A stretch of DNA of 51,470 nucleotides from a virus, in the IMG/VR virus record IMGVR_UViG_3300026522_000007, positions 1 through 51,470 of that record. One strand, 5' to 3'. The position numbers were made by a program, and so were the translations under genes. The notes beneath the pieces are model-generated. The model saw only the letters and a list, made by a program, of their open reading frames with translations, did no database searches and was not told the origin of the DNA. How positions within the stretch are numbered: position 1 is the first letter of the stretch; each line of letters starts with the position of its first letter. Shown piece by piece: positions 9,688 to 51,470 of the stretch.

Positions 9688-9736
9688 TAGCATCGTCGAC
9701 TGGAATCTATAGATTAGTCAGGTACATTATAATGCC
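9688..9736 (-). repeat. 49-nt imperfect direct repeat, copy B (3' end and downstream untranslated region of the 9727..10110 gene)
   Basis: tagcatcgtcgactggaatct is identical to 9912..9932; the flanks match at about 40/49 overall. Confidence 0.85.
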
Positions 9737-10110
9737 TGATCCCTGATTAGGATGACATGGCCAGTATCCTTAAGATTGAGCAGTTTATCCGCCACATCAC
9801 TGTCAACACGATTGAGATTTACTACACCGAAATACAGTGCTGTACCATTGGCTTTGCCATCAGTCACATCCACATCATGGAGAAGCACTGCATTAGCCGT
9901 CCCCATCTCCGTAGCATCGTCGACTGGAATCTTTCGACTAATCAGGGACATTATAATCGGCGTACCAGCCTTTGCAATCAGTCTGGGCCCTACGGGCACA
10001 CCAAGACTCTCAGGAACGATACAACCGACAGAAGCCTGAAGCTCTACGTTCGCCAGAATCTGTTTTGGTGCAGTATACCGTTCTTTTGTTACACCACTTC
10101 TATTCAGCAT
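9727..10110 (-). CDS. Head decoration-like protein
   Basis: 127 aa between the scaffold and major capsid genes; AAGGAGG RBS; function inferred from position only. Confidence 0.4.
   Translation of the reverse strand: MLNRSGVTKERYTAPKQILANVELQASVGCIVPESLGVPVGPRLIAKAGTPIIMSLISRKIPVDDATEMGTANAVLLHDVDVTDGKANGTALYFGVVNLNRVDSDVADKLLNLKDTGHVILIRDQAL
9912..9960 (-). repeat. 49-nt imperfect direct repeat, copy A (internal to the 9727..10110 gene)
   Basis: Counterpart of 9688..9736, offset by 224 nt. Confidence 0.85.
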
Positions 10111-10129
10111 TTCTTATTCCTCCTTATGC

Positions 10130-10843
10130 TTATTTGTTGTTGCCCCAGTAGCTGGACTTTTTACCAGTACCACGGCGCTGCGCAGCAAGACGAGCACCGA
10201 AACCTTTTTCTTCACCTTTGACTTCCTTAGAAGTCTTAACAGAAGAACCTGTTCCCTTCTGACCAGTCTTACCTTTTTCTTTGTTTTTTCCACCCTTGTC
10301 ATCGTCTTCGGATTCACCGAACCAAACAGGGTACTTGGTCTTAAACTCACCGATAATAGTTTTCAGGTCAGAATCTTCAGTCATCTTTGCAAGCGCAAGA
10401 GTAACCACATCTTCAACATACTGAGTTTTTACACCCAGCATCATAGCTTCAGCTTTAGCTTCAGCAATCTGAGCTCTCTGCTCAGCTTCGTTCATTTTGG
10501 TCTGATTTTCAGCATCCTTTTCGGCAGCCTTCTGCTCATCAGTCTTCTGACTTTCGATAAGTGCCTTAACCATTGCAACCATCTTGGAGTCCTTAGGGTC
10601 AATACCAAGTTCCTTAAGAGCAGCACTGCGACCCTGATTCTTTTCGCGGGTCATCATCTTATTTACCTGCTCCTGGGTGAAAGTCTTGCCAGACTTGCCC
10701 TTATCGTCTCCACCTTTGTCCTTACCAGATTTATCATCCTTACCGGACTTTCCAGAATCACCCTTGTTGTCGTCCTGGTCCTCAACGTCCTCGTTCTCTT
10801 TAATTTCCTCTTCAGTGAGGTTGTCTTTCTTTTCTTCAGCCAT
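10130..10843 (-). CDS. Scaffolding protein
   Basis: 237 aa, highly charged and helical; FTQEQVNKMMTREKNQ motif typical of DUF4355-type scaffolds; lies upstream of the capsid gene. Confidence 0.75.
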   Translation of the reverse strand: MAEEKKDNLTEEEIKENEDVEDQDDNKGDSGKSGKDDKSGKDKGGDDKGKSGKTFTQEQVNKMMTREKNQGRSAALKELGIDPKDSKMVAMVKALIESQKTDEQKAAEKDAENQTKMNEAEQRAQIAEAKAEAMMLGVKTQYVEDVVTLALAKMTEDSDLKTIIGEFKTKYPVWFGESEDDDKGGKNKEKGKTGQKGTGSSVKTSKEVKGEEKGFGARLAAQRRGTGKKSSYWGNNK

Positions 10844-10880
10844 TGTGAATTTTCTCCTTTCAAGTCAAGCTCCATGATAC

Positions 10881-11273
10881 TCATGGTAGATATTTGATCT
10901 CCTTCGAGTTGTTTTCAGACGCTACAAAGGTGAACGTCCCATTGTACTTCGCCAATAATTTCTTGCAGTGATTTTCCAGCCTTTTAGCTTTCTTAAGCAC
11001 CATATTGTTTAGCATCCTCGCAAACTCTACGTTATTGCTACCCTGATTTCTTCGTATTCTCTTTTTTGTTTTCTCGAGGTCCACTTTAAGTTCTTCGTAG
11101 TGTGCATCTTTCAACAACACACGGTAAATCTTATTACACTTTGGACACGTAAAGAATATCAATGATAGCTGTTCATTCTCACATTTTACAGATTGTTCCT
11201 GTATATTTACGGATTCAAGAGGAAACTCATAACCACATTCATCACACACGATTATTGCTTTTTCCTGACTCAT
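10881..11273 (-). CDS. Zinc-ribbon protein, paralogue B
   Basis: 130 aa; CDEC...CPKC pairs then a basic helical tail; start overlaps the stop of paralogue A. Confidence 0.6.
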   Translation of the reverse strand: MSQEKAIIVCDECGYEFPLESVNIQEQSVKCENEQLSLIFFTCPKCNKIYRVLLKDAHYEELKVDLEKTKKRIRRNQGSNNVEFARMLNNMVLKKAKRLENHCKKLLAKYNGTFTFVASENNSKEIKYLP

Positions 11274-11689
11274 ACCGAAAACCTCAGCACAAAGTCAGAA
11301 TCCGTTTCGTTGTCGTGCAGCAACTTACCGGTATATTCTTTCATGAGATTCATCCTGTAGTCAGACAGGTTCTGTCGAGCTTTCTTGAATTTTGCCGATT
11401 GTTTTTGTGGAATTTCTTTGCCCTTTTTCTTTAACACAGCAAGCTTTACAAACTGTCTGGAAACTTCCTTAAGTTTATTAAGCGATGTTGCGTCATCAAT
11501 TTGTACGTAATGGCGTCTGCCACACTTAGGACAATCGTAATATGTGAGAAATATTGATTGCCCATTTACATTGAACTCTTTTTTATGAGTAACTGCATTT
11601 GCTGCATTACCTGCTGTGATTCGAAATTTTTCTTTGCAATCTTCACACTCAACAAGCAATGACATTGTTTCTCTGTCGATTGTACTCAC
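11270..11689 (-). CDS. Zinc-ribbon protein, paralogue A
   Basis: 139 aa from GTG at 11689 (AGGAGG 7 nt upstream); CEDC...CPKC, same layout as 10881..11273. Confidence 0.6.
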   Translation of the reverse strand: MSTIDRETMSLLVECEDCKEKFRITAGNAANAVTHKKEFNVNGQSIFLTYYDCPKCGRRHYVQIDDATSLNKLKEVSRQFVKLAVLKKKGKEIPQKQSAKFKKARQNLSDYRMNLMKEYTGKLLHDNETDSDFVLRFSV

Positions 11690-11738
11690 TTGATTTCCTC
11701 CTTTTCTTGGAAATTGGTCCACATAACCACTTGTTTAT

Positions 11739-11767
11739 ATTATACCACACAAAATTAGATTTGTAAA
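11739..11767 (-). promoter_or_regulatory. Sigma-A-type promoter P1 (TTTACA-17-TGGTATAAT)
   Basis: Minus strand: TTTACA, a 17-nt spacer ending in TGG, then TATAAT; the -35 box and upstream A/T block lie inside the 3' end of the ARH gene. Confidence 0.7.
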
Positions 11768-12567
11768 TAGGAAAATACAAAATTTTTGAACTTTTCCAAA
11801 TAAATTTTGACCTCAGAATCCAGCTGGTCAATCCATCTTTGCGGTATAGCATCATAACCGAATCTTGCTCCTGCAATACTGCCAGTAATAGCAGCTATCG
11901 TGTCTGCATCACCACCATCATTTACGGCACCAATTATGGCTTTTTCAAATGACGGTTTATTTGCCCAATATAATGAATTATTGAATGTATCTCTGATATA
12001 TCCAGAAGGCTCCAGAATTGATTTTACTTTATAGGTATATAAATTATTATATAATATATTCTGAATCAATCTGGTATACTCCAGAATTATCTGGGAACAT
12101 TCTGAATTATTATGGGTTAGTTTACCCTGTGCCACATTCAAATCAGGCCTATTTATCAAAGCACATGGCATAGCTCTCATCAAACTACCATTACCAAGAG
12201 CAGCATCATCTTTTTCAATGAAATGACCTGTTGACATTGCACAAACTATTCCTTTTTGACATTGGCCACCTACATCCTTTGGTCCCATTCTATACCATTC
12301 AATGAAGTTACACATGCAATATTCTTCAAATAATTCAATATTACTCATCAAAGCATCCATAACACAGATAGTCATTTGGGTATCATCAGTCACCTTACCG
12401 GCTTCAAGATTTAGCCAGCCACCACCAATGATGTCGGTCACCTGACCATATTGCTTTTTGATTTGCTCACGATTCATGAACTCAGTGGTTGCACCCATTG
12501 CATCACCAATAGCAAACCCGTATATTGCACCTGCAATCTTATTCTTTATCTTCTTTATCGTACTCAA
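11755..12567 (-). CDS. ADP-ribosylglycohydrolase (DraG/ARH family)
   Basis: GAIYGFAIGDAMGATTEF, DDTQMT, GNGSLMR and GGDADTIAAITGSIAGARFG motifs; TTG at 12567 lies 8 nt after GGAGG (the track start 12594 is also possible). Confidence 0.85.
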   Translation of the reverse strand: MSTIKKIKNKIAGAIYGFAIGDAMGATTEFMNREQIKKQYGQVTDIIGGGWLNLEAGKVTDDTQMTICVMDALMSNIELFEEYCMCNFIEWYRMGPKDVGGQCQKGIVCAMSTGHFIEKDDAALGNGSLMRAMPCALINRPDLNVAQGKLTHNNSECSQIILEYTRLIQNILYNNLYTYKVKSILEPSGYIRDTFNNSLYWANKPSFEKAIIGAVNDGGDADTIAAITGSIAGARFGYDAIPQRWIDQLDSEVKIYLEKFKNFVFSYLQI

Positions 12568-12766
12568 TACACTCACCTCCATCAAGGACTTCATCAGGCT
12601 TTACTTCATACTTGGCACATTTAGATGTGTTGCAAGGCATTCCTTCATCTTTGAAACGATTTCGGCAATCCTTACAAACCAAGTCATCGTTTGTTATCAA
12701 ACCAAAGCTTAGCTTGTCTTTTTGAAACTTCTCATCAATAGCACTTAGATTTTTGTTTGCTGCCAT
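12539..12766 (-). CDS. Small Cys-rich protein
   Basis: 75 aa; AAGGAGG RBS; CKDC...C...C...C; first gene behind promoter P2. Confidence 0.55.
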   Translation of the reverse strand: MAANKNLSAIDEKFQKDKLSFGLITNDDLVCKDCRNRFKDEGMPCNTSKCAKYEVKPDEVLDGGECIEYDKEDKE

Positions 12767-12794
12767 AGTAGCACCTCCTTTTACTTCTGTAAAT

Positions 12795-12823
12795 ATTATA
12801 CCACATCACGATTAATTTGTACA
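12795..12823 (-). promoter_or_regulatory. Sigma-A-type promoter P2 (TGTACA-17-TGGTATAAT)
   Basis: Minus strand: CCTATGTACAAATTAATCGTGATGTGGTATAAT, immediately after the stop of the minor head/ART gene. Confidence 0.75.
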
Positions 12824-12838
12824 TAGGCTTTTGCAAAT

Positions 12839-14821
12839 TTATTTCGGGCCTTTCAAGTTTTTCAAAGTCATGTATATTCGTTTTACGTCACCATAACTAT
12901 CAAACTCAACATCATCAATAATGTATTTGCCTCCCCTATTTATAAGAAGCTCTTTCTCACCACGATTTCGTGATATAGTATCAACATACATTGCTTGGCT
13001 TCCTTTTGGAACCTTTATAACATATTCAATGTCTCTACTAAAACCACCACCAGAAGCAGGGCTCGTTGACATGAATCCTTTGTCGGAAACGATGCCACCA
13101 ACCAACCTGTCCTTATTCGCTTCTGAAATATCAAGACCAAGCTCTTCAAGCATATTATAATCAGAACCACGTCTAACTATTACTTCCTCAGGAAGACTTG
13201 CTTTCTTAAGAGCTGCCGTAGCTTGCTTAATTTCGTCTGCGTATCTTGTGGTCGTCCTTTGACCTCTCAAATATTTATTCATATCGATATAGGCAGAACC
13301 AGTATAAATCTCTACGCCATTTCGTTCTGCAGAAGATATTGCTCTAAGCCAATCATCACACCAAGATTCCATTTCTCTAAGATTATTATTTCGAATAGCT
13401 TGATGCCAAGCAGCAGAATCAAACTGAGCACCAACAGTCTTTGTAGTACTTGCAACCTTCTTGGTAGTCGTTGCAGTCTTCATAACGAAGTTCTTGTCAG
13501 TCAAATGCTGATTGTAGAATTTCATTAGCTGCTGATATGGATGCGGGTCAGACCAGCTTGTTCCCATACTCTTAAGAATTTCGCTTGCTTGTTCATAACT
13601 AACTTTGTGAGACCAATCATCAAAATCATACGGCATCTTGTCCTTGGTAAATCCATACGGCTTAAGATATTTCTCTTGAACATCACTAAATGCCTGAATC
13701 TTTTTCTTTCCACCAAGATTAGAACCATCACCATTGTAGATGTTCTTTTCGTACCATTCATTCCAGGTAAGACCGGACTGGTTCTTAAGAGCTTTAGCTT
13801 CAGCTTTCTGAATCTGTGTCAAACTATTGAACCAAGAAGAAGGTGACTTGGATGACATACCATACTTGGCAATAAAATCCTGAACAGTACCAGTTTTAGA
13901 AGCTTGATAGCCGAAGTTACCAGCAAATGCATCAATTTCAGGATATGTCCCATCAGGACTATTGAACCAGTCTGCAAGCTGGTCAATCATATCATCTGCT
14001 ACAACAGGTTCCATTGTACACATTCCATTCGGGTGGTCCATAGGAAGCTCTGTCTTCTTATAATGAACACCATCACGAGCTTTACATAATTCACACACTC
14101 GGCTTCCATTACTTCTCCAAACGTATTCGGTAATAAATGGATTTTTCTGAGTGGTTGCGATAAAGCTTTGCTGATACCCATGTTGAACTAAAGTCCTTGC
14201 CAATCGTTGAGCATTGTAATCAACCTGCTTTTTGTAGATTTTCTTACCGTCAGCCATTCGTAAATTCCAAGGCAACTTAGCACTTGGTCTTACATAAGAT
14301 TCAAGGTCCTTAGCAATCTCATAAATAGGTTTATTCTCAGCCAGCCCTTTTGCCATAACCTGATAAATGTCTTTGAGTGTTTGTTCATTATCACCCCAGA
14401 TTCTAGAGCTCAAACTCCAACCACTGTCATAGATTTGACCGGTTACCAGATTCTGTACAATTTCATGCGGCACATAACTGAATGCTGCGTTCAAACCATC
14501 AGAAGAAAAGCCGAAGCTCTCTAGCCACTTAACATTATCTGACACAACTGCATCAGCAACAGTGTAAATATTCGACTTAATCTTCTTGTAAACTTCATTG
14601 GAAACTTCCTGACTCGTCTGCCTCAATTGCTTCTGCAATTCTCTGTAATATCGCTCAGACACTGGAGCACTCGCAGTGGATTTGTGAGAGTAGTATTTGG
14701 CTCTCTCACCAATCTCATCTGCCCAATCTTCATAGAGCTTGGCAATCTCTTTTTTTTGGGATGCCATAATAGCATTCCTCGCCTCTTCAGCATTCTTGAA
14801 TATCAGCTTGTTACCTGCCAT
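12839..14821 (-). CDS. Minor head protein (SPP1 gp7 / Mu F-like) fused to a C-terminal ADP-ribosyltransferase toxin domain
   Basis: 660 aa directly after portal; CELCKARDG...HPNGMCTMEP (gp7/Mu F signature); C-terminal YTGSAYIDMNKYLRG, VIVRRG, GFMSTSP and GEKELLINRGG form the R-S-ExE triad of C3/Vip2-type ARTs. Confidence 0.85.
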   Translation of the reverse strand: MAGNKLIFKNAEEARNAIMASQKKEIAKLYEDWADEIGERAKYYSHKSTASAPVSERYYRELQKQLRQTSQEVSNEVYKKIKSNIYTVADAVVSDNVKWLESFGFSSDGLNAAFSYVPHEIVQNLVTGQIYDSGWSLSSRIWGDNEQTLKDIYQVMAKGLAENKPIYEIAKDLESYVRPSAKLPWNLRMADGKKIYKKQVDYNAQRLARTLVQHGYQQSFIATTQKNPFITEYVWRSNGSRVCELCKARDGVHYKKTELPMDHPNGMCTMEPVVADDMIDQLADWFNSPDGTYPEIDAFAGNFGYQASKTGTVQDFIAKYGMSSKSPSSWFNSLTQIQKAEAKALKNQSGLTWNEWYEKNIYNGDGSNLGGKKKIQAFSDVQEKYLKPYGFTKDKMPYDFDDWSHKVSYEQASEILKSMGTSWSDPHPYQQLMKFYNQHLTDKNFVMKTATTTKKVASTTKTVGAQFDSAAWHQAIRNNNLREMESWCDDWLRAISSAERNGVEIYTGSAYIDMNKYLRGQRTTTRYADEIKQATAALKKASLPEEVIVRRGSDYNMLEELGLDISEANKDRLVGGIVSDKGFMSTSPASGGGFSRDIEYVIKVPKGSQAMYVDTISRNRGEKELLINRGGKYIIDDVEFDSYGDVKRIYMTLKNLKGPK

Positions 14822-14838
14822 TATGGCATCCTCCTTTC

Positions 14839-16413
14839 TTATTCTTCAGTCATATCGATTTCTTCAATGTCCTCAACCTTTTCTTCCGGATTGTTATCAC
14901 CAGAAGGATATGGCTCAGTATCGCCACTAACTGCAAATGAGCTTTCCTCAAGCATCTGCCTTTCGAGTGCAATCTGTTCAAGTTCCTCCTGAACCTCATC
15001 ATCAGTAAGACCTCTCCACTTCTTCATATAAGCTTTACGGCTCATAGTCTTAGATTCAACCTCGGACAAGTCCATGTTCTTTTCCTCGATTTCATCCTCA
15101 GGGATAGGAAGGTTACCAACAATAGAAATTTCGTATGCAACAGAACTAATTACATCATTTGTATATTTCTCAATGCAGTTTGGATAAACCATTGCACCTT
15201 GCAGAATGATGTCAACCATATTTCTGAGCTGTGGTCCCCACATCTTCATTTTCTCTTTACACCTTACAATCAGCGGCCAATAAATCGCTTTAAGTGCTTT
15301 GCCACTTGTGATTGTAGCTTGCACCTCCTCAATATCAGGCACGTCAACTTGGTCATAAGCTGATTTCTTTATTCGTTTAAGTGTAATGTCAAGAGAAGAA
15401 CTATAGTTCATACTTGGCTCAAGCAAACCAACTTGCGGATATGCTTTGTCCAAGTTCTGGTCTGAACCCAAATCCCAGAAAGCACCAGCTGCGGTAGAAA
15501 GATTCTTGGTAGAATTTGATTCCATATCCACAGTATACTTAGTAGGATTCATTGATTTTCTCTGAGCATCAATATCTGCATTTGACAACTTACTATACCA
15601 AGATTCTTCATCCTGTAGAGTCTCAATTTCAGATTCACCTTTATCCTCACCAGACAGACCATCATTGATGAAGATACTTACTGGAATCATAGGCATCAGA
15701 GTTTCCTGATATTCAGTCACTTCTTCAATCAGACCTCCAGCACCATCGTACATTGCCTCTTCCAGATACACCACATCATCGACAAGCTCAAACTTCTTTT
15801 TGAAGATTCGTTTCTCACTCAATGTGATGCTGTCCTTTACAATGATAAAGCACACAAACTTAGTTATTATATTCGGATTGCCTATCTTTGTGTCATAGAT
15901 AAACTGTGTAGAGGGGAGGAATGTGATTGTCACCCCATCCTCTTCATTGAAATTTACCAAACCGGCAACTCTCTTACCAATGAAGCAATCTTTAGCTGCT
16001 TTGATAAGAGCTTCTTCAAAGTTATTAGCATCCAAAATCGTTTTAACCAAGTCGTTCATAGTTGTCAATGCATTCTTTGCATCTTCGGTAATCTTACCAA
16101 CATCGCCTTTCGGCTCAACCGTAATGTCAGGTGGCTCAGCAAAGAGGAACCTCGCTTCCTTGTTGATGAGGGAAGCATCCATCTTATAATTAAGCTTGGC
16201 AGGTATATAGTCACCGTTTGTTCCCTCTACCGTAAAACTTGCACCTTTCTTATACACTTTATAGTATTTGCAGATTTGTGTCAGCTCGTCCAATGTGTCC
16301 TTTGCTGCACCTGAAACTTCTGCGTTTATCAATGCATAAGGAATACGGTTGAAAGCTGTCAAGACTTCAGTACTATTCTCGGCCTTAATGACCTTAGCTT
16401 CTTCACTAGCCAT
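14839..16413 (-). CDS. Portal protein (SPP1 gp6-like)
   Basis: 524 aa; AAGGAGG RBS; acidic C-terminus; lies upstream of the gp7-like gene. Confidence 0.8.
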   Translation of the reverse strand: MASEEAKVIKAENSTEVLTAFNRIPYALINAEVSGAAKDTLDELTQICKYYKVYKKGASFTVEGTNGDYIPAKLNYKMDASLINKEARFLFAEPPDITVEPKGDVGKITEDAKNALTTMNDLVKTILDANNFEEALIKAAKDCFIGKRVAGLVNFNEEDGVTITFLPSTQFIYDTKIGNPNIITKFVCFIIVKDSITLSEKRIFKKKFELVDDVVYLEEAMYDGAGGLIEEVTEYQETLMPMIPVSIFINDGLSGEDKGESEIETLQDEESWYSKLSNADIDAQRKSMNPTKYTVDMESNSTKNLSTAAGAFWDLGSDQNLDKAYPQVGLLEPSMNYSSSLDITLKRIKKSAYDQVDVPDIEEVQATITSGKALKAIYWPLIVRCKEKMKMWGPQLRNMVDIILQGAMVYPNCIEKYTNDVISSVAYEISIVGNLPIPEDEIEEKNMDLSEVESKTMSRKAYMKKWRGLTDDEVQEELEQIALERQMLEESSFAVSGDTEPYPSGDNNPEEKVEDIEEIDMTEE

Positions 16414-16427
16414 CTTCCATTACCTCC

Positions 16428-18023
16428 TTATTTTACTCTGAACTTCTGTCCAACGTAAATCAGATTCGGATTAGAAATATTATTCCACTTCACAATCTGA
16501 TTTACAGTAGTTCCATATTCATTGGCAATTTTAGAAAGAGTATCGCCTTTCTTGACTGTGTAATATACAGCAGACGATGAACTCGTTCCTGCACACAACT
16601 CATTTACTTTTGCCTGAACTTTTACGTAGTCGTAGCCGGCATTTGTAAGAGCTGTCTTTCGGGCATCTCCGTTACCCCACTTACCAGCAATGACCTCTTT
16701 TGCAAGTTCATTTACAGATTTCTTAAGTACAGCACTTCCACCACCAAGAATACGATTCACCTCAGCCTGAACTGCGGCATAGTCATAACCAGCTACAGTT
16801 AACGCATTCTTTCTGGCATCACCATTACCCCATGCACCTTGAATAACTTCCTGAGCTACCTCACTAATAGACTTATCAGGGTTAGGCTTAGGAGCAGCAC
16901 CATCAGATGCATACTTAGGACGAGCAAATCCTCTAATATAACCCCATCCTACATTGATAGTTCTTCGTCCAACCCTCTCGCTCATGTTTCCTTCAATACA
17001 AGTAATTGTGTTTCCACTTACCTGCTCAACATAACCAATATGGTCAGACCAACCGTCATTCGGCTGAGAACTATCGTCCCAGTTAAACACGATAATGTCA
17101 CCTGCTTGAGGCTTAATCGAACCATCTTCAATCCAAATGCCTTTCTTCTTAAAGATGTCTACGTGCTTTTCAACACCAACCTCAGTACCAATCAAATCAA
17201 CTGCTCCTGCTTTAATAGCGGCAGCTGATACAGTAGCATCGCACCATTCATCGCTTGGTTTAATAGCATAGCCACGAGCCAATGGTTTATGACTGTTGTA
17301 CACATTCAAAATTTCAATATACTTACCATTCGCTTCGCTATACCCAATCCAACTACGCATTACGTTCAATACATCTTGAGCTGTAACTCCTACTTTAGTG
17401 TCCTCTTTTCCACCATCATTAGAAAGCATGCTCTCTTCATAGAGAGTGTCCATATCAACATTGCCATTGATTCCGCTTACCTTACCTGTGCTACCTGTCT
17501 GCTGAATTACACACTCAACATCAGGGCCACCAGTATAATCTGCCAACCAAAGATTCTTACGATACTCAGAAAGCTGAGCCCAATCGTAATAGTTCTTATA
17601 ATAATCCAGATTCGAATAGATACCGAGTTTCTTACAACCAGCAGCTTTGAGAATGTCAAGGAACTCTTTAGTGTACTGAGTACATAATGCCTTGGTAACC
17701 TTAACACCAGCTTTAGTCCATGTATCATATTCAAGGTCTGCAAAAATCCAGGTATTAGTTGGGTCAAGACCAGCAGCTTTCATATTAGCAATACAAGTAT
17801 TTGCATTCTCAGCGATTGTTGCACCATCTACATAAATGAAATGATACACACCAAGAATAGGAATACCTGCAGCTTTTGCTCCTTTAACATACTCAATGAA
17901 CTGGCCGTCAATAGCTCGTCTATAACCTTCTCTAAAGATGCAGAACTGAATGCCATCAGCTTTTACTTTATTAAAGTCAACTGAGCCTTGCCAATTTGAG
18001 ATGTCGATTCCTTGCTTACCCAT
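16428..18023 (-). CDS. Multidomain endolysin: GH25 muramidase + CHAP + 2x Cpl-7 (CW_7) + LysM
   Basis: N-terminal GIDISNWQG...FCIFREGY (GH25); WCDATVS...GDIIVFNW...HIGYV...IEGN (CHAP); two repeats (AQ/AK)[32 protein letters not shown] (Cpl-7); C-terminal [14 protein letters not shown]...VGQKFRV (LysM). Confidence 0.9.
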
Positions 18024-18082
18024 TACTTTCGGCCTCCTTTACCTTTCTTGTACCTTTCTTAGTGCCATCACACTTAGCCATG

Positions 18083-18313
18083 TTACTCACCTTCTTTCAC
18101 TTCAGGAATGCCAGCAACACTAGTCAAGATACTTACCACACCGGCAAGCAGGCTAGCACTGCCAACCATTACCCAATTCACTTCACCCATGGTAGCAGAA
18201 GCACCAATAGTTGCGATAGCAGTCTGAGCAACAGTCTTGATTGCACGAACACCAGCAGCCTTAAGCCACTTAATAGTATTCACATCAGCCTTAAACACAC
18301 AATTCTTGAACAA
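18083..18313 (-). CDS. Holin (phage r1t-type)
   Basis: 76 aa; TTG start 8 nt after AGGAGG; RAIKTVAQTAI...VVSILTSVAGIPE matches my memory of r1t-family holins; lies immediately upstream of the endolysin. Confidence 0.7.
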   Translation of the reverse strand: MFKNCVFKADVNTIKWLKAAGVRAIKTVAQTAIATIGASATMGEVNWVMVGSASLLAGVVSILTSVAGIPEVKEGE

Positions 18314-20287: not shown

Positions 20288-21190
20288 TTACTTACCTTTA
20301 CCCTTCTTCAATTTATTTTCAGATTCAAGATATTTTTTAGCAAGAACCACTATAGCGTCTTCTTTGTCTGATTTCTTTACCTCACCTTTGGCAATTAATC
20401 TTTCAACCGCTTTATCGAGGATTCGTCCATCTTTAGCTTTAATATCTGACCTACCAATGATAGTACTAATAGGTACATACTCTTTATCTTTAGCATCATC
20501 AATCCAGACTTCTTTTAATTCTGACATGTGATTCTTCACTATCTCAAGCATTGCCATAAAACCAACCGCTGTATTTCTAATTCGTGATGCTTTGCTTACA
20601 TCACTTATTGTATCAAGATACTTGTCATATTCAGCCATTCGTAACATAAGCGTTTCGTTTGACCTTACTTCTTTCATAACATCTTTTAATACAGCTTTAA
20701 TCTCTTCAATCTCAGAAGGAAGAAACAAGATATTCAATACTTGATATTGCAATCCTGAATAAGACATACTTTGAGTGCTTATATTATCTAACAACTTAAG
20801 TGTCTCATCATCTAATCCAGAATACGCTTTCATATTCACATCATCAATACTCTCATATAACTGCTTTAATACAGCCATGTCGTCTTTACCACTGATAGCA
20901 TTATGACTTAATTGAATACCAATACGCTGGTCTTTTGTCAATGGTTCCTCTGTTACTTGAACATCTATCTCTTGTAGCCCTGCTTCAATAGCCGCCTGAA
21001 CTCTATGGTTTCCACTTAACACTACTAAATTCCAATCATCATCATAAACACAAAACGGAAGCTGAGTCAAACAACCATCACGTTTTATATTTTGAACCAA
21101 TCTCTGAAATTCATCAGCATTCATAAACCTTGCATTTACCTCGAGCAACTTTATTTCTCTCGGGTCTACTTTGATGACTTTCGTCTCCAT
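20288..21190 (-). CDS. ParB-like nuclease domain protein
   Basis: 300 aa; ParB N-terminal motif VVLSGNHRVQAAIEAGL; AAGGAGGG RBS. Confidence 0.8.
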   Translation of the reverse strand: METKVIKVDPREIKLLEVNARFMNADEFQRLVQNIKRDGCLTQLPFCVYDDDWNLVVLSGNHRVQAAIEAGLQEIDVQVTEEPLTKDQRIGIQLSHNAISGKDDMAVLKQLYESIDDVNMKAYSGLDDETLKLLDNISTQSMSYSGLQYQVLNILFLPSEIEEIKAVLKDVMKEVRSNETLMLRMAEYDKYLDTISDVSKASRIRNTAVGFMAMLEIVKNHMSELKEVWIDDAKDKEYVPISTIIGRSDIKAKDGRILDKAVERLIAKGEVKKSDKEDAIVVLAKKYLESENKLKKGKGK

Positions 21191-22521
21191 AGTTCGTATC
21201 CCTCCTTAAGACTCCACTGTCCCATTGGCGCTCCATAAGACAGATTCCATTTTTTCACTTTACCATTTTCGTCTTTTTCAATTTCTCTTCTTCCAAATAA
21301 TTCAAATAAACCACGATATTTCATGCTTACAGGATTCTTACTAAATGCATTTGTTGTAATGCTGTTTGCTCTCTTACCTGTTACTTTCTCAGCCAAAAAT
21401 CTTGCTTCTTTACTTAAGATACAATATAGAACAAGCTTACTCAAATTCTTTTCACACGTAGGTCTAATCGAAAAATCAGTCATCAAATATACAGTGGGCT
21501 TCTCAAGCTTTTCACTTCCTTTAAGCATGTAACTACTACCAAAAGCAAATACACCAAATAACTTATCTTCACAAAATAAACCATAACTTGCTATAGGCGT
21601 TCCTACTTTCGTAACATTCGTACTCAAGTATAATGACCTTAATTCTTGAAATTGGTCAATAGTGATAGGTGCAATTGCAATATTTTCTGTAATTACATCA
21701 TGCTTACCAATTCTAATGATGGGCTTAGCATCCGTTGCCCTTACTCCTTGCCTTACATAATGCTTTTTATCTGTCTTACTATAAAAGTAAATCAGTTTAT
21801 TCGGTCCTGTATTTAACGTGCCATTGAAGTATTGTTCAAGCTCTTCAACTGGTCTTTCTGTTCCAATGACAAAATTATCCAACCTGCTTACTTTATGACA
21901 AAACTCAGCAATATGCACATCAGGGTCAAACATCTCATAATCAGGTTCTGTATACTCAAAGAAATTTTCAATCTCCTTCCACATTCTTTCATAGCCACCT
22001 TTGAAAAATGGAGGGAAACTGATAAACCCACAATCTGCAGGTATTTCATCAATCATTTTCATTACATCGCCATGATAAAATGTATCAATGTTTGTCTTCA
22101 TTCCTTCAAGTTTTTTACACAAATCACTATGCATTCTTGAATACTGTTCTTTATATCCTCGCATCATACGTTTACTATACTGGTCATTATGCATTGAATA
22201 TGGCAGAATATCAGACGCTAACATCATTGTTGCTACTTTCTCTGTATCGTTATTCATATAATCTCTCAGAAAGTTACACTCACCATCGTAATCGTCTTTA
22301 ATTTTCAGTTCTTCCAAGCTCTGACCTGAGAAATACTTACCAATGTACGAGCTATAAATAGTCACGTCATTACTCGTAATCTTACAGTCAAGGAATCCAC
22401 TAATAGAACGCTCAATCGTGAAATTGCCTGAGCAACCAACATATACCCTTTTTACATTCCATTCTTTAACGATATTCCCGATGATATTTATCGCTCTATG
22501 CGGTAATGTACCCTGAAACAC
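21166..22521 (-). CDS. Dam (D12-class)-like methyltransferase-fold protein with a non-canonical FPPF motif and an unassigned C-terminal domain
   Basis: GTG at 22521 lies 7 nt after AAGGAGG; RVYVGCSGNF aligns with motif I and DCGFISFPPFF with DFVYVDPPY of T4 Dam (from memory); about 190 extra C-terminal aa. Confidence 0.5.
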   Translation of the reverse strand: MFQGTLPHRAINIIGNIVKEWNVKRVYVGCSGNFTIERSISGFLDCKITSNDVTIYSSYIGKYFSGQSLEELKIKDDYDGECNFLRDYMNNDTEKVATMMLASDILPYSMHNDQYSKRMMRGYKEQYSRMHSDLCKKLEGMKTNIDTFYHGDVMKMIDEIPADCGFISFPPFFKGGYERMWKEIENFFEYTEPDYEMFDPDVHIAEFCHKVSRLDNFVIGTERPVEELEQYFNGTLNTGPNKLIYFYSKTDKKHYVRQGVRATDAKPIIRIGKHDVITENIAIAPITIDQFQELRSLYLSTNVTKVGTPIASYGLFCEDKLFGVFAFGSSYMLKGSEKLEKPTVYLMTDFSIRPTCEKNLSKLVLYCILSKEARFLAEKVTGKRANSITTNAFSKNPVSMKYRGLFELFGRREIEKDENGKVKKWNLSYGAPMGQWSLKEGYELWRRKSSK

Positions 22522-23095
22522 TAGCTTTCCTCCTTTCCTCAATTTTATCTATGGCTTTCTTCCAAGATTCTTCTCCATTAAACTCTTTGAAGTCATCATA
22601 ATCCAAATTATCAGATACGATTTTAATAGAATAAAGACTTCTATACACAAATCTTGCAATATATGCAAGCTCCATATCAAACAAAGCTTTTTCTTCAACG
22701 TTGTCTGCTTTCTCAACAAAATCAATGCTTGTATAGCAATTATATCCTTCGTCAGATAGCTTCACATGATTTTTAACGCTTGTATTTGCTTTTGTCGGAA
22801 ATTCAAAACAACTACACGCTTTTACATTTACAACACAACCAACATCGATTCCTTTTGCACCTGCGTATCCAACATTGATAATGTTAACATCCGAATTCAA
22901 GATTCCTAAACTTATGGCTTTTGATAACGAGCTTATTACATTATTTACACCAGCACCTGTGACTATCAGCTGAAAAACATCATTTGACCACAAATTCATG
23001 CAACTTAGCTCTTGCTTTTTCATTTTATAGTGCTCAATCAAAGATTGGGCTTCTTGCATTTCTGCCACCACAAACAATGCTTCCATCATTTTCAT
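22496..23095 (-). CDS. PNP_UDP_1-family nucleosidase (MTA/SAH nucleosidase-like)
   Basis: LIVTGAGVNNV, VNIINVGYAGA, VGCVVNV and LFDMELAYIA...IKIVSDNLD align with E. coli Pfs/MtnN blocks from memory. Confidence 0.65.
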   Translation of the reverse strand: MKMMEALFVVAEMQEAQSLIEHYKMKKQELSCMNLWSNDVFQLIVTGAGVNNVISSLSKAISLGILNSDVNIINVGYAGAKGIDVGCVVNVKACSCFEFPTKANTSVKNHVKLSDEGYNCYTSIDFVEKADNVEEKALFDMELAYIARFVYRSLYSIKIVSDNLDYDDFKEFNGEESWKKAIDKIEERRKASVSGYITA

Positions 23096-23115
23096 TTTCC
23101 TCGCTTTAATTTCCT

Positions 23116-23149
23116 ATAAACACGAACAAGGCAGCCATTTCTGGCTACC
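23116..23149 (-). terminator. Rho-independent terminator candidate
   Basis: Minus strand: GGTAGCC-AGAAAT-GGCTGCC (7-bp stem with one G.U) followed by TTGTTCGTGTTTAT. Confidence 0.55.
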
Positions 23150-23179
23150 CTATCGTATTAACGCTTAAAATAATTTTAA

Positions 23180-23590
23180 TTACCTGTTATTTTTCAAGAT
23201 TTTCTTCAAGTCTTTCTTGTCATCTCTTAACTCAGGAATTTCAACATCAATTCCTCTTAGCCAAAGTTCTTCTTCTAACCATCTTGCAACAATATGACGA
23301 TGACAGAAGGTTTCTCCCTTCTCAATTTTATCCATACTTTCATGACATAAAATAACTGCATCATGTAAATCTTCCCAAACCTTCATCGGGTCAAGTTTAC
23401 TAAGTATTTGTTCGCGATATGCTTTTTCATATTCTTCCTCATCGGTCATATGAATCATATCCCACGTTGGAAACAATGCCGGATATCTTTCTCCATGAAA
23501 GTACTTTGCACTTCTTGCAATACTTACTAATCGTAAATCTCTGTCACGAAAAGCTTTTGAATTTACTCTTCCAAAATAACTTGTCTTCAT
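23180..23590 (-). CDS. DUF488-like protein
   Basis: 136 aa; ILCHE...FCHRHIVARWL resembles the DUF488 C-terminal signature. Confidence 0.5.
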   Translation of the reverse strand: MKTSYFGRVNSKAFRDRDLRLVSIARSAKYFHGERYPALFPTWDMIHMTDEEEYEKAYREQILSKLDPMKVWEDLHDAVILCHESMDKIEKGETFCHRHIVARWLEEELWLRGIDVEIPELRDDKKDLKKILKNNR

Positions 23591-23644: not shown

Positions 23645-23673
23645 ATTATACCATAATCAAATAGGTTTGTACA
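23645..23673 (-). promoter_or_regulatory. Sigma-A-type promoter P3 (TGTACA-17-TGGTATAAT)
   Basis: Minus strand: GGGTGTACAAACCTATTTGATTATGGTATAAT, with an AAAAACTTTTAAG block upstream. Confidence 0.75.
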
Positions 23674-28354: not shown

Positions 28355-28383
28355 ATTATACCAGGTTACTTACCATTTGTACA
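28355..28383 (-). promoter_or_regulatory. Sigma-A-type promoter P4 (TGTACA-17-TGGTATAAT)
   Basis: Minus strand: TTCAAAAACTTTCAAAAAGCCTATGTACAAATGGTAAGTAACCTGGTATAAT. Confidence 0.8.
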
Positions 28384-30890: not shown

Positions 30891-30893
30891 AAA

Positions 30894-30965
30894 CTGGGCT
30901 AGTTGGATTCGAACCAACGAATGCAGGAGTCAAAGTCCCGTGCCTTACCATTTGGCGATAGCCCA
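30894..30965 (-). tRNA. tRNA-Gln (anticodon UUG)
   Basis: Cloverleaf folded by hand: acceptor TGGGCTA/TAGCCCA, D arm GCC..GGC, anticodon stem CGGGA/TCCTG with loop CTTTGAC, T arm GTTGG-TTCGAAT-CCAAC; close to E. coli tRNA-Gln from memory; no encoded CCA. Confidence 0.85.
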
Positions 30966-30984
30966 ATAAATACCAGAGGCTGCA

Positions 30985-32156: not shown

Positions 32157-32185
32157 ATAATACCACATAAATAGGAGTTTGTACA
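32157..32185 (-). promoter_or_regulatory. Sigma-A-type promoter P5 (TGTACA-17-TGGTATTAT)
   Basis: Minus strand: GAAAAACTTTTGCAAAAAGTGTGTACAAACTCCTATTTATGTGGTATTATAAT. Confidence 0.75.
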
Positions 32186-33814: not shown

Positions 33815-33843
33815 ATTATACCACAAGGATTTTGATTTGTACA
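33815..33843 (-). promoter_or_regulatory. Sigma-A-type promoter P6 (TGTACA-17-TGGTATAAT)
   Basis: Minus strand: GGATATGTACAAATCAAAATCCTTGTGGTATAAT. Confidence 0.75.
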
Positions 33844-42767: not shown

Positions 42768-43265
42768 TTATTTGGCCTCCTTCTCAATTAGTTTGTTGAT
42801 TTCATTCGTGTATCTCTCAAGACGTTCTTTAGATTCGAAGTAAATCTCACCAATACAATCGGAAGAATTACCAAGAGTCTTTTCATTCAAACACCACTGA
42901 TATACACTGTAAGCATCTGCCAACTTAAGAATATTATATACTATCGGTTCAGGTTTGTACACCTCTCCGAGATAATTTTTCCAATGTTCTTTGTAATAGT
43001 CCTGCTCGATCCTGTTGAGTATTTGCTGCATCTCAGGATAGTTTGCTTTGACATCATGAGGAATATCAGATGTACGACTTTCACATGTGTCATGCAAAGC
43101 TGCAAGAATCAGAACCTGTCGTTCCTGCTCGTGAGTAAGATTAAGCTGAGCCATAATCTTAAGACAGAACAAAGAAACAAAACATGTATGCTCTGCAACA
43201 CTCTCATCCTGAAGTCTAATACGATGATTGTACCTGATAATCTTCTTGAGTGGGTACTCACTCAT
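42768..43265 (-). CDS. HD-domain phosphohydrolase (YfbR-like 5'-deoxynucleotidase)
   Basis: 165 aa from ATG at 43265; SVAEHT ... LHDTCESRTSDIPHDVK (H..HD..D). Confidence 0.7.
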   Translation of the reverse strand: MSEYPLKKIIRYNHRIRLQDESVAEHTCFVSLFCLKIMAQLNLTHEQERQVLILAALHDTCESRTSDIPHDVKANYPEMQQILNRIEQDYYKEHWKNYLGEVYKPEPIVYNILKLADAYSVYQWCLNEKTLGNSSDCIGEIYFESKERLERYTNEINKLIEKEAK

Positions 43266-46004: not shown

Positions 46005-46548
46005 CGTCATGCCCTCGTTTCACACCAACAGTGAAATAGGGTTTCTGACGTTTTACAGTGTAGCAACCTTTTACCTGTTCTGCGGTTATCTTCCCAATCT
46101 CCTCAAGCCTATCAAGCTCCTGAGTATCAACTGTTTGTGACACATTCAGAAACGACTTAAAGATTTTAGGGTCCACATCACATTCTTTAAGGTAAGCAAT
46201 CAATGCGTCCATGTCAGTGATTTCGTACTTCTTAATTATTACCTGCTTAGCAAGCTGTTTTCCTAAAGCTTTTGCAAGCTTATCAGGGTCGAACTCAACA
46301 CTTGACTTTTGAATACGATTGACCACCAAGTCGCTTTCGACTAAATCATCATACGAAAACGTAAGTGACTTATCGATGCCTTCACACTCAAAATAGTCCT
46401 CCATATCACTGCTGAATTGTGCTTTCAATTCATTGAACTGTGATTGCACCTGCTTAAATCTCGATTGTCTCTCAAAGAACTTACGAACAGATTGTCTACA
46501 CTCAGTCGAACTAAGTTTAGCTTTTCTGTTCCTCTTTGCCATTCTCAT
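45985..46548 (-). CDS. Hypothetical protein
   Basis: 187 aa; basic N-terminus; no motif recognised. Confidence 0.5.
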   Translation of the reverse strand: MRMAKRNRKAKLSSTECRQSVRKFFERQSRFKQVQSQFNELKAQFSSDMEDYFECEGIDKSLTFSYDDLVESDLVVNRIQKSSVEFDPDKLAKALGKQLAKQVIIKKYEITDMDALIAYLKECDVDPKIFKSFLNVSQTVDTQELDRLEEIGKITAEQVKGCYTVKRQKPYFTVGVKRGHDDGEQKW

Positions 46549-47029
46549 CCACCAATCCTTTCAAAAGCTTATAAACTCCACGAGGCCAACGCTTACCGGT
46601 ACGTACCCACACAATATCATCAAAAGATACGATGTACTCAGCACCATAATCAGTCTCAAGCTTAAGCTTACGATTCTTGGTAGATTTACGAGTGACCTTA
46701 GCAGATTTTACTCTGCCATTTGAAAGACGGAAAGCAACCAAAGTACCGATTTCAATGTTCTCAATATACGGCATCTTCTGAGCCATATCAACATCAACGT
46801 TGGCGGATTCTTTCTCAACTTTATCTTCCACCTCTACGACATCGTGATTGTCAATCTTACATTCGTCTTTAGCACTTTCAGATTCATCGTTCTTCTTCAA
46901 CACTTCCGCTCCTAAGATTGCATCAATCAGCTGGTCCTTGGTCATGTCCCATCTACCAGAGATGTTCATGTCCTTTGCAAGCTCTCTGAGCTCTTTACAG
47001 GTTTTCTTCTGCAGATTTTCTCTTGACAT
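46517..47029 (-). CDS. Hypothetical protein with a Rho_N/SAP-like N-terminal motif
   Basis: 170 aa; AAAGGAGG RBS; KTCKELRELAKDMNISGRWDMTKDQLIDAIL. Confidence 0.5.
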   Translation of the reverse strand: MSRENLQKKTCKELRELAKDMNISGRWDMTKDQLIDAILGAEVLKKNDESESAKDECKIDNHDVVEVEDKVEKESANVDVDMAQKMPYIENIEIGTLVAFRLSNGRVKSAKVTRKSTKNRKLKLETDYGAEYIVSFDDIVWVRTGKRWPRGVYKLLKGLVDENGKEEQKS

Positions 47030-47839: not shown

Positions 47840-47868
47840 ATTATATCATGTTATTTTGAGTTTGTACA
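47840..47868 (-). promoter_or_regulatory. Sigma-A-type promoter P9 (TGTACA-17-TGATATAAT)
   Basis: Minus strand: TTTCAAAAACTTTTTAAAATGTATGTACAAACTCAAAATAACATGATATAAT; lies directly after the late-operon terminator. Confidence 0.8.
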
Positions 47869-50519: not shown

Positions 50520-51470
50520 TTAACACTGACAACCGATAGACCACTCAAATACAATGACTTCATCATTAGAAGTAGCAAGCAACTCACCAGAAGAAATTTC
50601 AGCAGGAGCAAATGCTTTACCAGAAATGAGCATCTTTTCAATGTTATCCAATCTAGCTTCATGCTCGTCAAGCTCTACCTGAATTTTGCCAGCCACATCT
50701 TCACTAAGCTGACCTTTAACATTTTCAAACCACGTAGTAAACTCATTCTGCCACAAATCAATGTGAGATGCATACCACTCATCGTACTCAGCTTTCTGCT
50801 CATTCGTCCAATTTGTGTAGTCATTCTCTTGCAGAGTAACCCATGTAATATACGCCTGCTTTTGCTCAGCCGTCCAGTTCGCATAGTCATTCTCATAGAA
50901 TTGCTTAAACTCATCAAAGTATGATTCGAACTGATTGTACAGGTCCGTAGTATCAATCTGATCAACAACACCGGTAACAAGACCACAAACACTATTGTCG
51001 AGCCTTGTATCTGTTATCTGTGCTTGAGTGATCTTAATTGCACCTGCAGGGATTGAAACCGTTGCCAACTGTAAATCGTAATAGTCTGCACCACGGCTTA
51101 TTGAAGGTGCAACCGGATTGGCACTCGGTGTTCCTTTGATGACCTGAAGCCACATATCTCTTTCAGTCTGTCCCCAACGAAGTACAATCAAATCGATCCT
51201 GGACAGTGCTCCATGTGCAACATCAATGTCCAATGTGTAGGCGTCTGTATTACGGTACCACCATCCATTGATCCACGCCTGCCCACTTCCAACCTTGACC
51301 GACATATTGGCTGTATCCTGAGCGCGAACTTTCAACTGCTGCATTGAACTACCAAATACACCGTTGCCAATAAACGATGCAAAGTAAGCTGCAAACTGTT
51401 CGGCAAGATACACGCGGTCGTATTCCTCACCAACTAACTGTGCGTTAAAAAATCCACATTCCTGAGCCAC
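50520..51470 (-). CDS. Tail fibre protein (gene spans the circular junction; its RBS is at 132..141)
   Basis: 316 aa; GTG at 51470 (=127) with GGAGGTGAGG at 132..141; N-terminal GFFNA...YDRVYLAEQFAAYFASFIGNGVF is typical of Firmicutes phage fibre N-termini; internal 22-aa duplication. Confidence 0.65.
   Translation of the reverse strand: MAQECGFFNAQLVGEEYDRVYLAEQFAAYFASFIGNGVFGSSMQQLKVRAQDTANMSVKVGSGQAWINGWWYRNTDAYTLDIDVAHGALSRIDLIVLRWGQTERDMWLQVIKGTPSANPVAPSISRGADYYDLQLATVSIPAGAIKITQAQITDTRLDNSVCGLVTGVVDQIDTTDLYNQFESYFDEFKQFYENDYANWTAEQKQAYITWVTLQENDYTNWTNEQKAEYDEWYASHIDLWQNEFTTWFENVKGQLSEDVAGKIQVELDEHEARLDNIEKMLISGKAFAPAEISSGELLATSNDEVIVFEWSIGCQC
51344..51470. repeat. Terminal direct repeat, identical to 1..127
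   Basis: Base-by-base identity with the first 127 nt of the window. Confidence 0.95.

Follow-up and report, generated by a model that had tools for sequence, protein, structure and literature searches.

A putative toxin-antidote cassette and a conserved zinc-ribbon gene pair between the MuF-like and scaffold genes of an IMG/VR phage

Introduction

Gut phages commonly carry toxins fused to MuF-type head proteins. What these toxins do is a matter of debate, with the lysogeny decision, bacterial warfare and host colonisation all under discussion. To our knowledge, only two of them (Bxa and Apk2) have been studied experimentally, and both come from prophages. Here, we describe a locus of this kind in the IMG/VR virus record IMGVR_UViG_3300026522_000007, of which positions 1 to 51,470 were analysed (51,470 nucleotides (nt); hereafter the window). 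Between the portal and scaffold genes of this phage lie a MuF/gp7-like gene with a C-terminal ADP-ribosyltransferase (ART) domain, and four smaller genes for a 75-amino-acid (aa) Cys-rich protein (C75), an ADP-ribosylglycohydrolase (ARH) and two zinc-ribbon proteins (ZnR1 and ZnR2). The region probably comprises two adjacent units, namely a toxin-antidote cassette with a promoter-like site of its own, P2 (unit A), and a conserved block of a second promoter-like site, P1, with ZnR1 and ZnR2 (unit B).

The closest described system is that of Bxa, a MuF-ART protein encoded by a prophage of Bacteroides stercoris, in which the products of two neighbouring genes, Bsi and BAH, counter the toxicity (Alexei et al., J Biol Chem 2024, PMC11699363). 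[quoted passage not shown] The window locus shares with this system the order of an N-terminal MuF and C-terminal ART, then a small non-enzymatic protein, then an ADP-ribosylhydrolase, and it likewise belongs to a family whose members combine one type of MuF N-terminus with various toxins. It differs in that Bxa belongs to a Bacteroidales prophage, whereas the window phage is apparently a virulent siphovirus with relatives binned with Clostridia. BAH has been described as ARH1-like, whereas the window enzyme is closest to DraG; C75, a protein of Cys4 zinc type without detectable relatives outside this phage group, is likened to Bsi by position and description. The putative antidote genes of the window also have their own promoter-like cassette, which sets them apart from the Bxa system. 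The core logic is thus already known from Bxa, Bsi and BAH; the present locus extends it to a phage without recognisable lysogeny genes, and adds no new principle.

The wider family of MuF polymorphic toxins was defined by Jamet et al. (BMC Biol 2017, PMC5576092), with ARTs making up 14% of their set. The window locus resembles its members in having MuF beside the portal, a variable C-terminal toxin and a small downstream open reading frame (ORF), and in having relatives with a short MuF that lack this ORF. The description of that family contains no enzymatic (ARH) antidote and no dedicated promoters, whereas the window has candidates for both. MuF-fused ARTs, presumed to be packaged in heads, have also been catalogued by Iyer and colleagues, who reported that phages rarely have ARH domains (PMC9503650).

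Neighbouring ART and ARH genes are found in Tre1-Tri1 (6dre), DraT-DraG and Lmo0066-Lmo0067 (8za7). These systems differ from the present one in secretion-system delivery, whereas the toxin is here part of a virion protein and a small gene, C75, stands ahead of ARH. A further likeness is with T4 Alt, an ART that is made late, carried in the head and ready at injection, but which has no MuF fusion. We know of no ARH partner in T4.

The MuF-ART gene and its candidate antidotes

Unit A and the conserved head-protein domain in front of it are laid out as follows.

12839-14821, minus strand: MuF/gp7-like gene, 660 aa, with the portal gene (PF05133) directly upstream
13907-14821, minus strand: conserved N-terminal MuF/gp7-like head-protein domain (aa 1-305), ending in the junction motif ...NSPDGTYPEIDAFAGNFGY
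13358-13906, minus strand: linker, in the variable C-terminal half (12839-13906)
about 12851-13357, minus strand: ART domain, in the same variable half, with R / STS / ExE motifs
12539-12766, minus strand: C75, 75 aa with five Cys, acidic (pI 4.7)
11755-12567, minus strand: DraG-like ARH, 270 aa from a TTG start (ORF 11755-12594)

The MuF gene matches phrog_1657 (E=2.5e-52) and phrog_115 (E=2e-22). Pfam Phage_Mu_F is the top match of the N-terminal 305 aa, yet remains sub-threshold (E=0.005; 18.1 bits against a cut-off of 29.6). By tblastn, it has counterparts among the MuF/head-morphogenesis genes of phages that infect Clostridium, Streptococcus (Dp-1 Gp40) and Bacillus. At the other end of the protein, aa 489-657 match the ART family PF03496 (E=2.9e-31). 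The best match in the PDB is Lmo0066 (8za7_B, E=1e-22), and VIP2, C3larvin and C3 are also matched; a weak match to the 'Alt-like' phrog_802 has E=1e-4. The catalytic R ('VRRGS'), the STS motif and the E-x-E motif ('GEKELL') align with those of Lmo0066 and VIP2, and on this motif alignment the domain is predicted to be a catalytically competent ART of the R-S-E type.

An ARH is encoded close by, with only one gene, C75, between it and the ART. It matches PF03747 (E=1e-50) and, in the PDB, DraG (2woc, E=1e-40), Tri1 (6dre, E=9e-30) and Lmo0067 (8za7_A, E=1e-27); its metal-site motifs TDDT, DVG and GGDADT align with those of DraG. Lmo0066 and Lmo0067 are two chains of one solved complex, 8za7. 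Since these chains are the best match of the window ART and a match of the window ARH, respectively, the ART and ARH of the window are homologs of two proteins that are known binding partners. In a set of 50,697 deposited phage genomes, ARH homologs were found in 37, at identities of no more than 35%; those listed come mostly from jumbo, Streptomyces and Rhodococcus phages, and none of those listed is annotated in a head or MuF gene.

As read from the sequence, the likeliest ARH start is the TTG at 12567, 6 nt after GGAGGTG. The 5′ end of ARH then overlaps the 3′ end of C75 by 29 nt, which suggests translational coupling. C75 itself has four invariant Cys (C31, C34, C50 and C66). Its 65 homologs are all close, none has a Pfam domain, and a C75 profile run against PDB sequences gave only chance zinc-finger matches (E>0.7). 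The N-terminal extension of Tri1 plugs Tre1; the ARH domain of Tri1 starts at about residue 70, and the window ARH has no such extension. The idea that C75 is the counterpart of this plug is speculative, as no homology of C75 to Tri1 or Lmo0067 was detected.

The first-pass annotation of the window had described the four ORFs between the gp7-like and scaffold genes, which the ORF list bears out, but was silent on the ART domain of the gp7-like gene. It is because this gene carries an ART domain that the presence of an ARH is explained. C75 and ARH would thus be functionally tied to the neighbouring virion protein, rather than being unrelated morons. For annotation, the lesson is that an ARH among head genes calls for a look at how the MuF gene next to it ends.

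Co-variation and boundaries of the cassette

A scan of IMG/VR with the MuF protein yielded 64 loci, onto which the window proteins were mapped by tblastn. Counts are given for the 49 loci that span the whole MuF-to-scaffold interval, 22 of which carry the ART (ART+) and 27 of which do not (ART-). ARH is present in 14/22 ART+ loci and in 0/27 ART- loci (p=5e-7), and C75 in 18/22 and 0/27, respectively (p=6e-10), by Fisher tests that ignore the phylogeny of the loci. The reverse search, with C75 as a profile query, found a MuF-ART directly upstream of C75 in 12/12 loci and ARH directly downstream in 10/12. The module is absent from loci L007, L008, L010, L013 and L021, despite 94-97% identity to the window in the MuF N-terminal domain (MuF-N), and present in L009, L033, L039 and L054, at only 47-63% MuF-N identity. 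With near-identical relatives lacking the module and distant ones carrying it, the co-variation is not a matter of simple shared ancestry.

The boundaries of the variable unit were located by blastn against relatives without the ART module, three of which have no C-terminal domain (L008, L021, L010) and one a different domain (L007). Homology ends exactly at 13907, which is MuF codon 305, just after ...PEIDAFAGNFGY, and resumes at 11747, the TG of the extended -10 element of P1. The general form of the MuF junction motif is ...PEIDxFAxxFGY. The exchangeable unit can thus be given as follows.

11748-13906, minus strand: exchangeable cassette of linker, ART, P2, C75, ARH and the -35/upstream part of P1

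This differs from the single island of four genes that had been proposed, as the variable unit takes in the C-terminal half of the gp7-like gene. Nor did the proposed comparison with relatives in which gp7 directly adjoins the scaffold gene yield any such relative: in 47/49 loci, one or more ZnR genes are found there.

What stands behind the junction in relatives is diverse. At a MuF-N identity of 86-97%, the domain is replaced by another or is missing; the C-termini include other ART subtypes, a domain that weakly matches an ATLF-like metallopeptidase and contains an HEYGH motif, and domains of unknown type, or the gene meets a stop codon a few residues after the junction. Another ART subtype, in L030 and L029, is followed by a different ORF of 69-71 aa and then by ARH or an ARH remnant. 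Taken together, the delivery domain and the junction are conserved, whereas the toxin varies and the downstream genes match it; on sequence grounds, polymorphic toxins are built in this way. Cassettes would be swapped between phages by recombination at two conserved flanks, namely the MuF junction motif and the -10/5′ untranslated region (5′UTR) of P1.

Two individual loci add detail. In L029, MuF ends in another C-terminus, which is weakly ART-like, and a 71-aa ORF comes next; here, positions 1640-1710 are a 71-nt ARH remnant, 94% identical to window positions 12036-12106; this remnant is a scar of cassette exchange. In the distant relative L048, a sigma-70-family protein with regions 2 and 4 (positions 1668-2291) directly follows MuF-ART, in place of C75 and ARH.

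Promoter-like sites and transcription

Two promoter-like sites, one in each unit save for the cassette boundary that runs through P1, were found at the positions given by the first-pass annotation.

12795-12823, minus strand: P2, with TGTACA (12823-12818), a 17-nt spacer and TG-extended TATAAT (12800-12795)
11739-11767, minus strand: P1, with TTTACA (11767-11762), a 17-nt spacer and TG-extended TATAAT (11744-11739)

Both combine -35 and -10 elements at 17-nt spacing with a TG extension, lie on the coding strand, are followed by a ribosome-binding site and start codon, and are conserved in relatives; from these features they are predicted to be sigma-A-type promoters with an extended -10 element. 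The observation that the same promoter cassette is repeated elsewhere also holds, including in the replication region. Exact matches to TKTACA-N17-TATAAT number 10 in the window, all on the minus strand, against 0.04 expected (100 shuffles), and an 11th near-copy at 32157 has the -10 sequence TATTAT. The copies other than P1 and P2 lie at 23.6-47.9 kb, among nucleotide-metabolism and replication genes (e.g. 23645-23673, 28355-28383 and 47840-47868). Most copies have the TG extension, and an upstream TTCAAAAACTTTT block is common to several. The -35 sequence of the 11 copies is the palindrome TGTACA, or TTTACA in two of them, and not TTGACA; this element and the upstream block could reflect a preference of the host sigma-A or the binding site of another factor.

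P2 begins 15 nt past the stop codon of MuF-ART, its distance to the start codon of C75 is 28 nt, and its upstream block overlaps the last MuF-ART codons. The ARH stop codon (11757-11755) is located within the spacer of P1, so that the -35 element and the TTCAAAAATTTT block of P1 lie within the last ARH codons, in agreement with the earlier description of an A/T-rich block embedded in the end of that gene. The copies at 42933 and 40887 also lie within ORFs, as P1 and P2 do in part.

In relatives, a site orthologous to P1 is present 55-235 nt upstream of the ZnR1 match in 28 loci (23 distinct sequences, found by a motif regular expression), with or without the ART module. Sites orthologous to P2 were found in L001, L002, L003, L005, L006 and L024, and most other ART-bearing loci have promoter-like sites right after the ART stop codon. 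From these sequences, the cassette seems as a rule to provide the antidote genes with a transcription start of their own. In the 5′UTR after P1 (11711-11733) there is also a motif, (A)AGTGGTT(A/G)TG-GGACCAA, whose AGTGGTT core is kept in many relatives, even at about 45% ZnR1 identity; AGTGGTTA is also found downstream of the promoter at 33815. This motif may be an operator or an RNA element, or may reflect shared ancestry.

No terminator-like sites were found on the minus strand between 12839 and 10843, and none of note further downstream in the structural genes. Transcripts from P1 should therefore run into the scaffold and capsid genes, and late read-through from upstream should also cover C75 and ARH. 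The four genes had been expected to be transcribed independently of the surrounding operon; because neither block is followed by a terminator, the units lack insulation from it. The label 'early', which they had also been given, derives from the promoter class alone. A distinct type of late promoter or a phage sigma factor was not found in the window, and the SPP1 literature offered no usable parallel.

The promoter copy at 23645 stands at the start of a block that continues into the terminase genes, with a 13-pair terminator-like hairpin after its first gene. This monocistronic gene has a weak, sub-threshold Pfam match of DUF488-like type. It was considered as a late-gene regulator and rejected, as it resembles no known regulator.

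The zinc-ribbon pair

Downstream of P1, unit B (10881-11747) continues into the scaffold gene.

11270-11689, minus strand: ZnR1, 139 aa, pI 9.35 (ORF 11270-11722), likeliest start GTG at 11689 after AAGGAGG
10881-11273, minus strand: ZnR2, 130 aa, basic (phrog_1315, E=5e-10)
10130-10843, minus strand: scaffold gene (phrog_2303, E=5e-23), the first unambiguous structural gene downstream of P1

The two ZnR genes are joined by an ATGA stop/start overlap, and a gap of 37 nt without a terminator separates the ZnR2 stop from the scaffold gene. Their products are distant paralogs (BLASTP E=7e-5; both match phrog_1315) and both are basic, with pI values of 9.0-9.35; ZnR1 also has a weak CpXC match (PF14353). 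There are 489 close ZnR1 homologs, the best 120 of which are 73-96% identical, and a profile search of 1.84 billion proteins placed the ZnR family in 581 clusters at 50% identity. The 150 family members listed are all short, at about 70-190 aa, with no large multi-domain protein among the matches listed. An AlphaFold2 model of ZnR1 (pLDDT 84) has a five-stranded zinc-ribbon sheet, two long helices forming a helical hairpin, and a small C-terminal sheet. It found no fold match in the PDB (best E=0.13), and its matches in BFVD are uncharacterised homologs with unreliable names.

ZnR1 is present in 47/49 relatives, independently of the ART and including those whose MuF has no C-terminal domain. 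On this comparative sequence evidence, the ZnR pair is a core component of the lineage, not an insertion, and P1 is a conserved promoter, as predicted above, in front of it. The proposal of an accessory unit with its own promoter is thus upheld for the ART-C75-ARH cassette and fails for the ZnR pair.

Similar genes occur in more distant phages. In the cultured Clostridium phage CS266P1, the ZnR homologs, genes 00055 (ZnR1) and 00054 (ZnR2), lie between MuF and scaffold, where the pair follows a 34-nt gap and has no promoter in front. Gp39 of phage Dp-1, a 'Zn-finger' protein encoded between portal and MuF, is a structural match of ZnR1 and is not marked as a virion protein in the Dp-1 record. 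The sole interaction reported for this ZnR-like orf39 is a yeast two-hybrid interaction with host RuvB (PMC4840434), a single data point from a distant homolog that we keep as a lead only. Because the pair occupies the portal-MuF-scaffold neighbourhood in three phage lineages, a role in head assembly or DNA handling is suggested, with low confidence. The zinc-ribbon pair before the scaffold gene (phrog_1315, CpXC-like) is thus a conserved part of the head module in this lineage.

Proposed functions of the two units

The preferred reading of the region as two adjacent units can be set out as a mechanism. Unit A (11748-13906) would be a cassette of the polymorphic-toxin type, equipping a MuF head protein with a C-terminal ART of the arginine type. 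By analogy with SPP1 gp7 and T4 Alt, MuF-ART would be packaged in the capsid and injected with the DNA. By analogy with Bsi and BAH, C75, as a small acidic protein of zinc-binding type, would inhibit the ART by binding to it, and the DraG-like ARH would erase the ADP-ribose modification. Both would be expressed from their own sigma-A-like P2, directly behind MuF-ART. As P2 is of the replication-region class and late read-through should contribute as well, the antidotes would be present before and during the synthesis of new MuF-ART; they would protect the machinery of the infected cell and end the action of the ART injected at the start of infection. The simplest assumption for a phage without lysogeny is that the ART, once injected, targets the host of the phage itself, and that the antidotes limit this action in time and protect the cell during particle assembly. 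In unit B (10881-11747), ZnR1 and ZnR2 would be conserved members of the portal-MuF-scaffold neighbourhood, most likely acting as a non-virion assembly or DNA-handling factor. P1 would be a conserved promoter within the operon, with transcripts that extend through the scaffold, capsid and tail genes.

Several points weigh against this mechanism. Packaging and injection, neutralisation and timing are taken over from analogous systems, and the function of the ZnR pair is deduced from gene position. C75 has no detectable relatives outside this phage group, and its AlphaFold2 model (29 sequences; pLDDT 49, pTM 0.16) is unusable; its proposed role as a binding partner or inhibitor of the ART comes from position, co-variation and analogy. 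The association tests take no account of phylogeny, and 8/22 ART+ loci lack ARH and 4/22 lack a detectable C75, so that neither partner is obligatory. MuF polymorphic toxins have been reported only in temperate phages and prophages (PMC5576092), whereas no lysogeny gene was found in the complete 51.3-kb genome described here, so that selection may favour the cassette for other reasons than it favours Bxa. An ordinary promoter of the structural operon would account equally well for the conservation of P1 and the missing terminator, and an 'antidotes first' timing is plausible but not required.

The mechanism could also be taken further, in a form that we regard as doubtful. As an immunity pair cannot serve a lysogen in an apparently virulent phage, MuF-ART would be an infection effector and not an inter-bacterial weapon. 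Injected MuF-ART would cause a self-limited pulse of host takeover, in which host targets are ADP-ribosylated in the first minutes, until the promoter-equipped C75 (blocker) and ARH (eraser) end it and later provide protection. C75 would then be a new class of zinc-dependent ART inhibitor, performing as a separate protein the job of the N-terminal plug of Tri1 in Tre1-Tri1. Separately, the ZnR pair under P1 could be an unrecognised head-assembly or packaging pair of a large group of Firmicutes siphoviruses.

The presence of a complete three-part ART/blocker/eraser cassette in a phage that lacks lysogeny genes suggests that it serves the infection cycle, and its own host-type promoter and clean recombination boundaries add to this picture. 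The cassette would also provide a simple test system for the action of MuF toxins.

Alternative explanations

As regards the promoters, the chief competing view is that P1, and possibly P2, serve the structural operon as common internal promoters and mainly boost the scaffold, capsid and tail genes, whose products are needed in abundance, with the small genes riding along under late or constitutive expression. This explanation is partly compatible with the two-unit reading, and we see it as possible but less likely. P1 is kept in relatives with and without the ART cassette, and the 37-nt gap between ZnR2 and scaffold has no terminator. The following 15 kb or so of structural genes, up to the terminator at 47930-47900, contain neither another copy of the motif nor a strong terminator; the promoter copy at 23645 is followed by its 13-pair terminator-like hairpin before the packaging block; and no separate class of late promoter or phage sigma factor was found. 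However, the ZnR pair of CS266P1 shows that the gene order does not need a promoter, P2 is cassette-specific and has C75 and ARH alone to drive up to the point where P1 takes over, and both sites are identical in sequence class to the promoters before replication genes. By contrast, the original proposal of one moron-like island of four unrelated non-structural genes, inserted between gp7 and scaffold and expressed early and independently of the late operon, is now unlikely. It accounts for the two promoter cassettes of replication-region class before the two gene pairs and for the lack of matches of the four genes to structural families, but synteny contradicts it, with ZnR genes in 47/49 relatives and gp7 never adjoining scaffold, as do a variable unit that includes half of the gp7-like gene, the strict co-variation of C75 and ARH with the ART domain, and the absence of terminators bounding the units. 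The likeness to morons holds for the linker-ART-C75-ARH cassette, an accessory block in a late operon that has its own promoter-like site and is absent from close relatives. It breaks down in that no terminator lies between 10843 and 12839, that the block includes one domain of a structural gene, that the moron concept comes from temperate phages and prophage-expressed genes, and that the core ZnR pair is unlike morons altogether.

Two further alternatives concern single genes. The ARH might be a counter-defence enzyme directed against ADP-ribosylating defences of the host (DarT-like or similar), and unrelated to the phage ART. Phage-borne de-ADP-ribosylating enzymes that defeat DarTG are known (PMC11825919), and an early-type promoter would suit such a gene. 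This is nevertheless very unlikely, as ARH was never seen without a MuF-ART upstream in the loci compared (0/27 ART- loci; 10/10 ARH-bearing loci in the C75-query set), and as it is a protein hydrolase of DraG/Tri1 type, homologous to the partner chain of the complex whose ART chain best matches the window ART. It is more improbable still that ZnR1 and ZnR2 are extra (orphan) immunity proteins of a MuF poly-immunity locus. They are small ORFs downstream of a polymorphic toxin gene, and poly-immunity loci have been discussed for MuF clusters (PMC11699363), but the ZnR genes are present whatever the MuF C-terminus, even with none. Moreover, the 73-96% identity of the best 120 of 489 ZnR1 homologs makes them conserved and not hypervariable, a homolog is found elsewhere in the head module in Dp-1, and the ZnR proteins are basic whereas C75 is acidic.

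Genome context

The first and last 127 bases of the window are identical (1-127 and 51344-51470), indicating a complete circular assembly of about 51,343 bp in which the minus strand is the coding strand for all genes. The main blocks outside the region under study are the following.

47930-47900, minus strand: GC-rich terminator-like hairpin of 13 pairs, directly upstream of the first promoter cassette (47868-47840)
after the first promoter, minus strand: nucleotide-metabolism/replication block with primase, SSB-like protein, HD nucleotidase, deoxyribosyltransferase, DNA polymerase, UvsX-like recombinase, Cas4-like exonuclease, dCMP deaminase and RNase H
20288-23590, minus strand: DNA-modification-like block just before TerS, with a weak DUF488-like match, DAM-like and GNAT-like genes (PF22555/PF22559) and a ParB-like nuclease
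minus strand: packaging and head genes in the order TerS, TerL, holin, endolysin, portal, MuF and the region under study
18083-18313, minus strand: holin (phrog_443)
16428-18023, minus strand: endolysin, 531 aa, forming with the holin a lysis cassette (16428-18313) between the large terminase and portal genes
minus strand, downstream of the region: structural genes in the order scaffold, decoration-like gene, major capsid protein, head-tail and tail genes, tape measure, Dit and minor tail protein

The tail genes wrap round the window end and lead back to the terminator-like hairpin at 47930-47900. This hairpin and the promoter at 47868-47840 look like the end and start of a transcription programme that runs in one direction round the circle.

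No integrase, repressor or sigma factor was found in Pfam and PHROG scans of most ORFs of at least 100 aa. In genome collections, close relatives (72-90% identical in MuF-N) are found mostly on phage-sized contigs of 48-54 kb, not inside chromosomes, and the bins of most of these contigs are Oscillospiraceae and other Clostridia. For these reasons, the phage looks like a virulent siphovirus of gut Clostridia, the missing recognisable lysogeny gene being in itself no proof of lifestyle. At the nucleotide level, megablast of 9700-16500 against the 50,697 deposited phages gave no match, and among these phages relatives are seen at the protein level only. Rfam and tRNA scans of the region found nothing, and a repeat search over 10-15 kb gave chance matches only. 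The GC content of the four-gene stretch is 36-39%, against 38-42% in its surroundings, and an argument for foreign origin from this difference was dropped, as it is too small.

Some minor observations concern the remaining genome. The slot of the lysis cassette is variable in relatives, with an endolysin in some and other content in others. Between 35775 and 44255 lie genes for a nucleoside deoxyribosyltransferase, an HD 5′-deoxynucleotidase and a dCMP deaminase, along with weak, sub-threshold MazG/dUTPase matches; together with the cluster before TerS (20288-23590), these nucleotide enzymes suggest base modification of the phage DNA. A single tRNA-Gln gene (anticodon UUG; 30893-30966, minus strand) lies among the early/middle genes. 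Finally, an early gene (46517-47029, minus strand) encodes a 170-aa protein with a Rho termination factor N-terminal domain (PF07498, E=2e-9), which may be an RNA-binding protein or a modulator of transcription termination.

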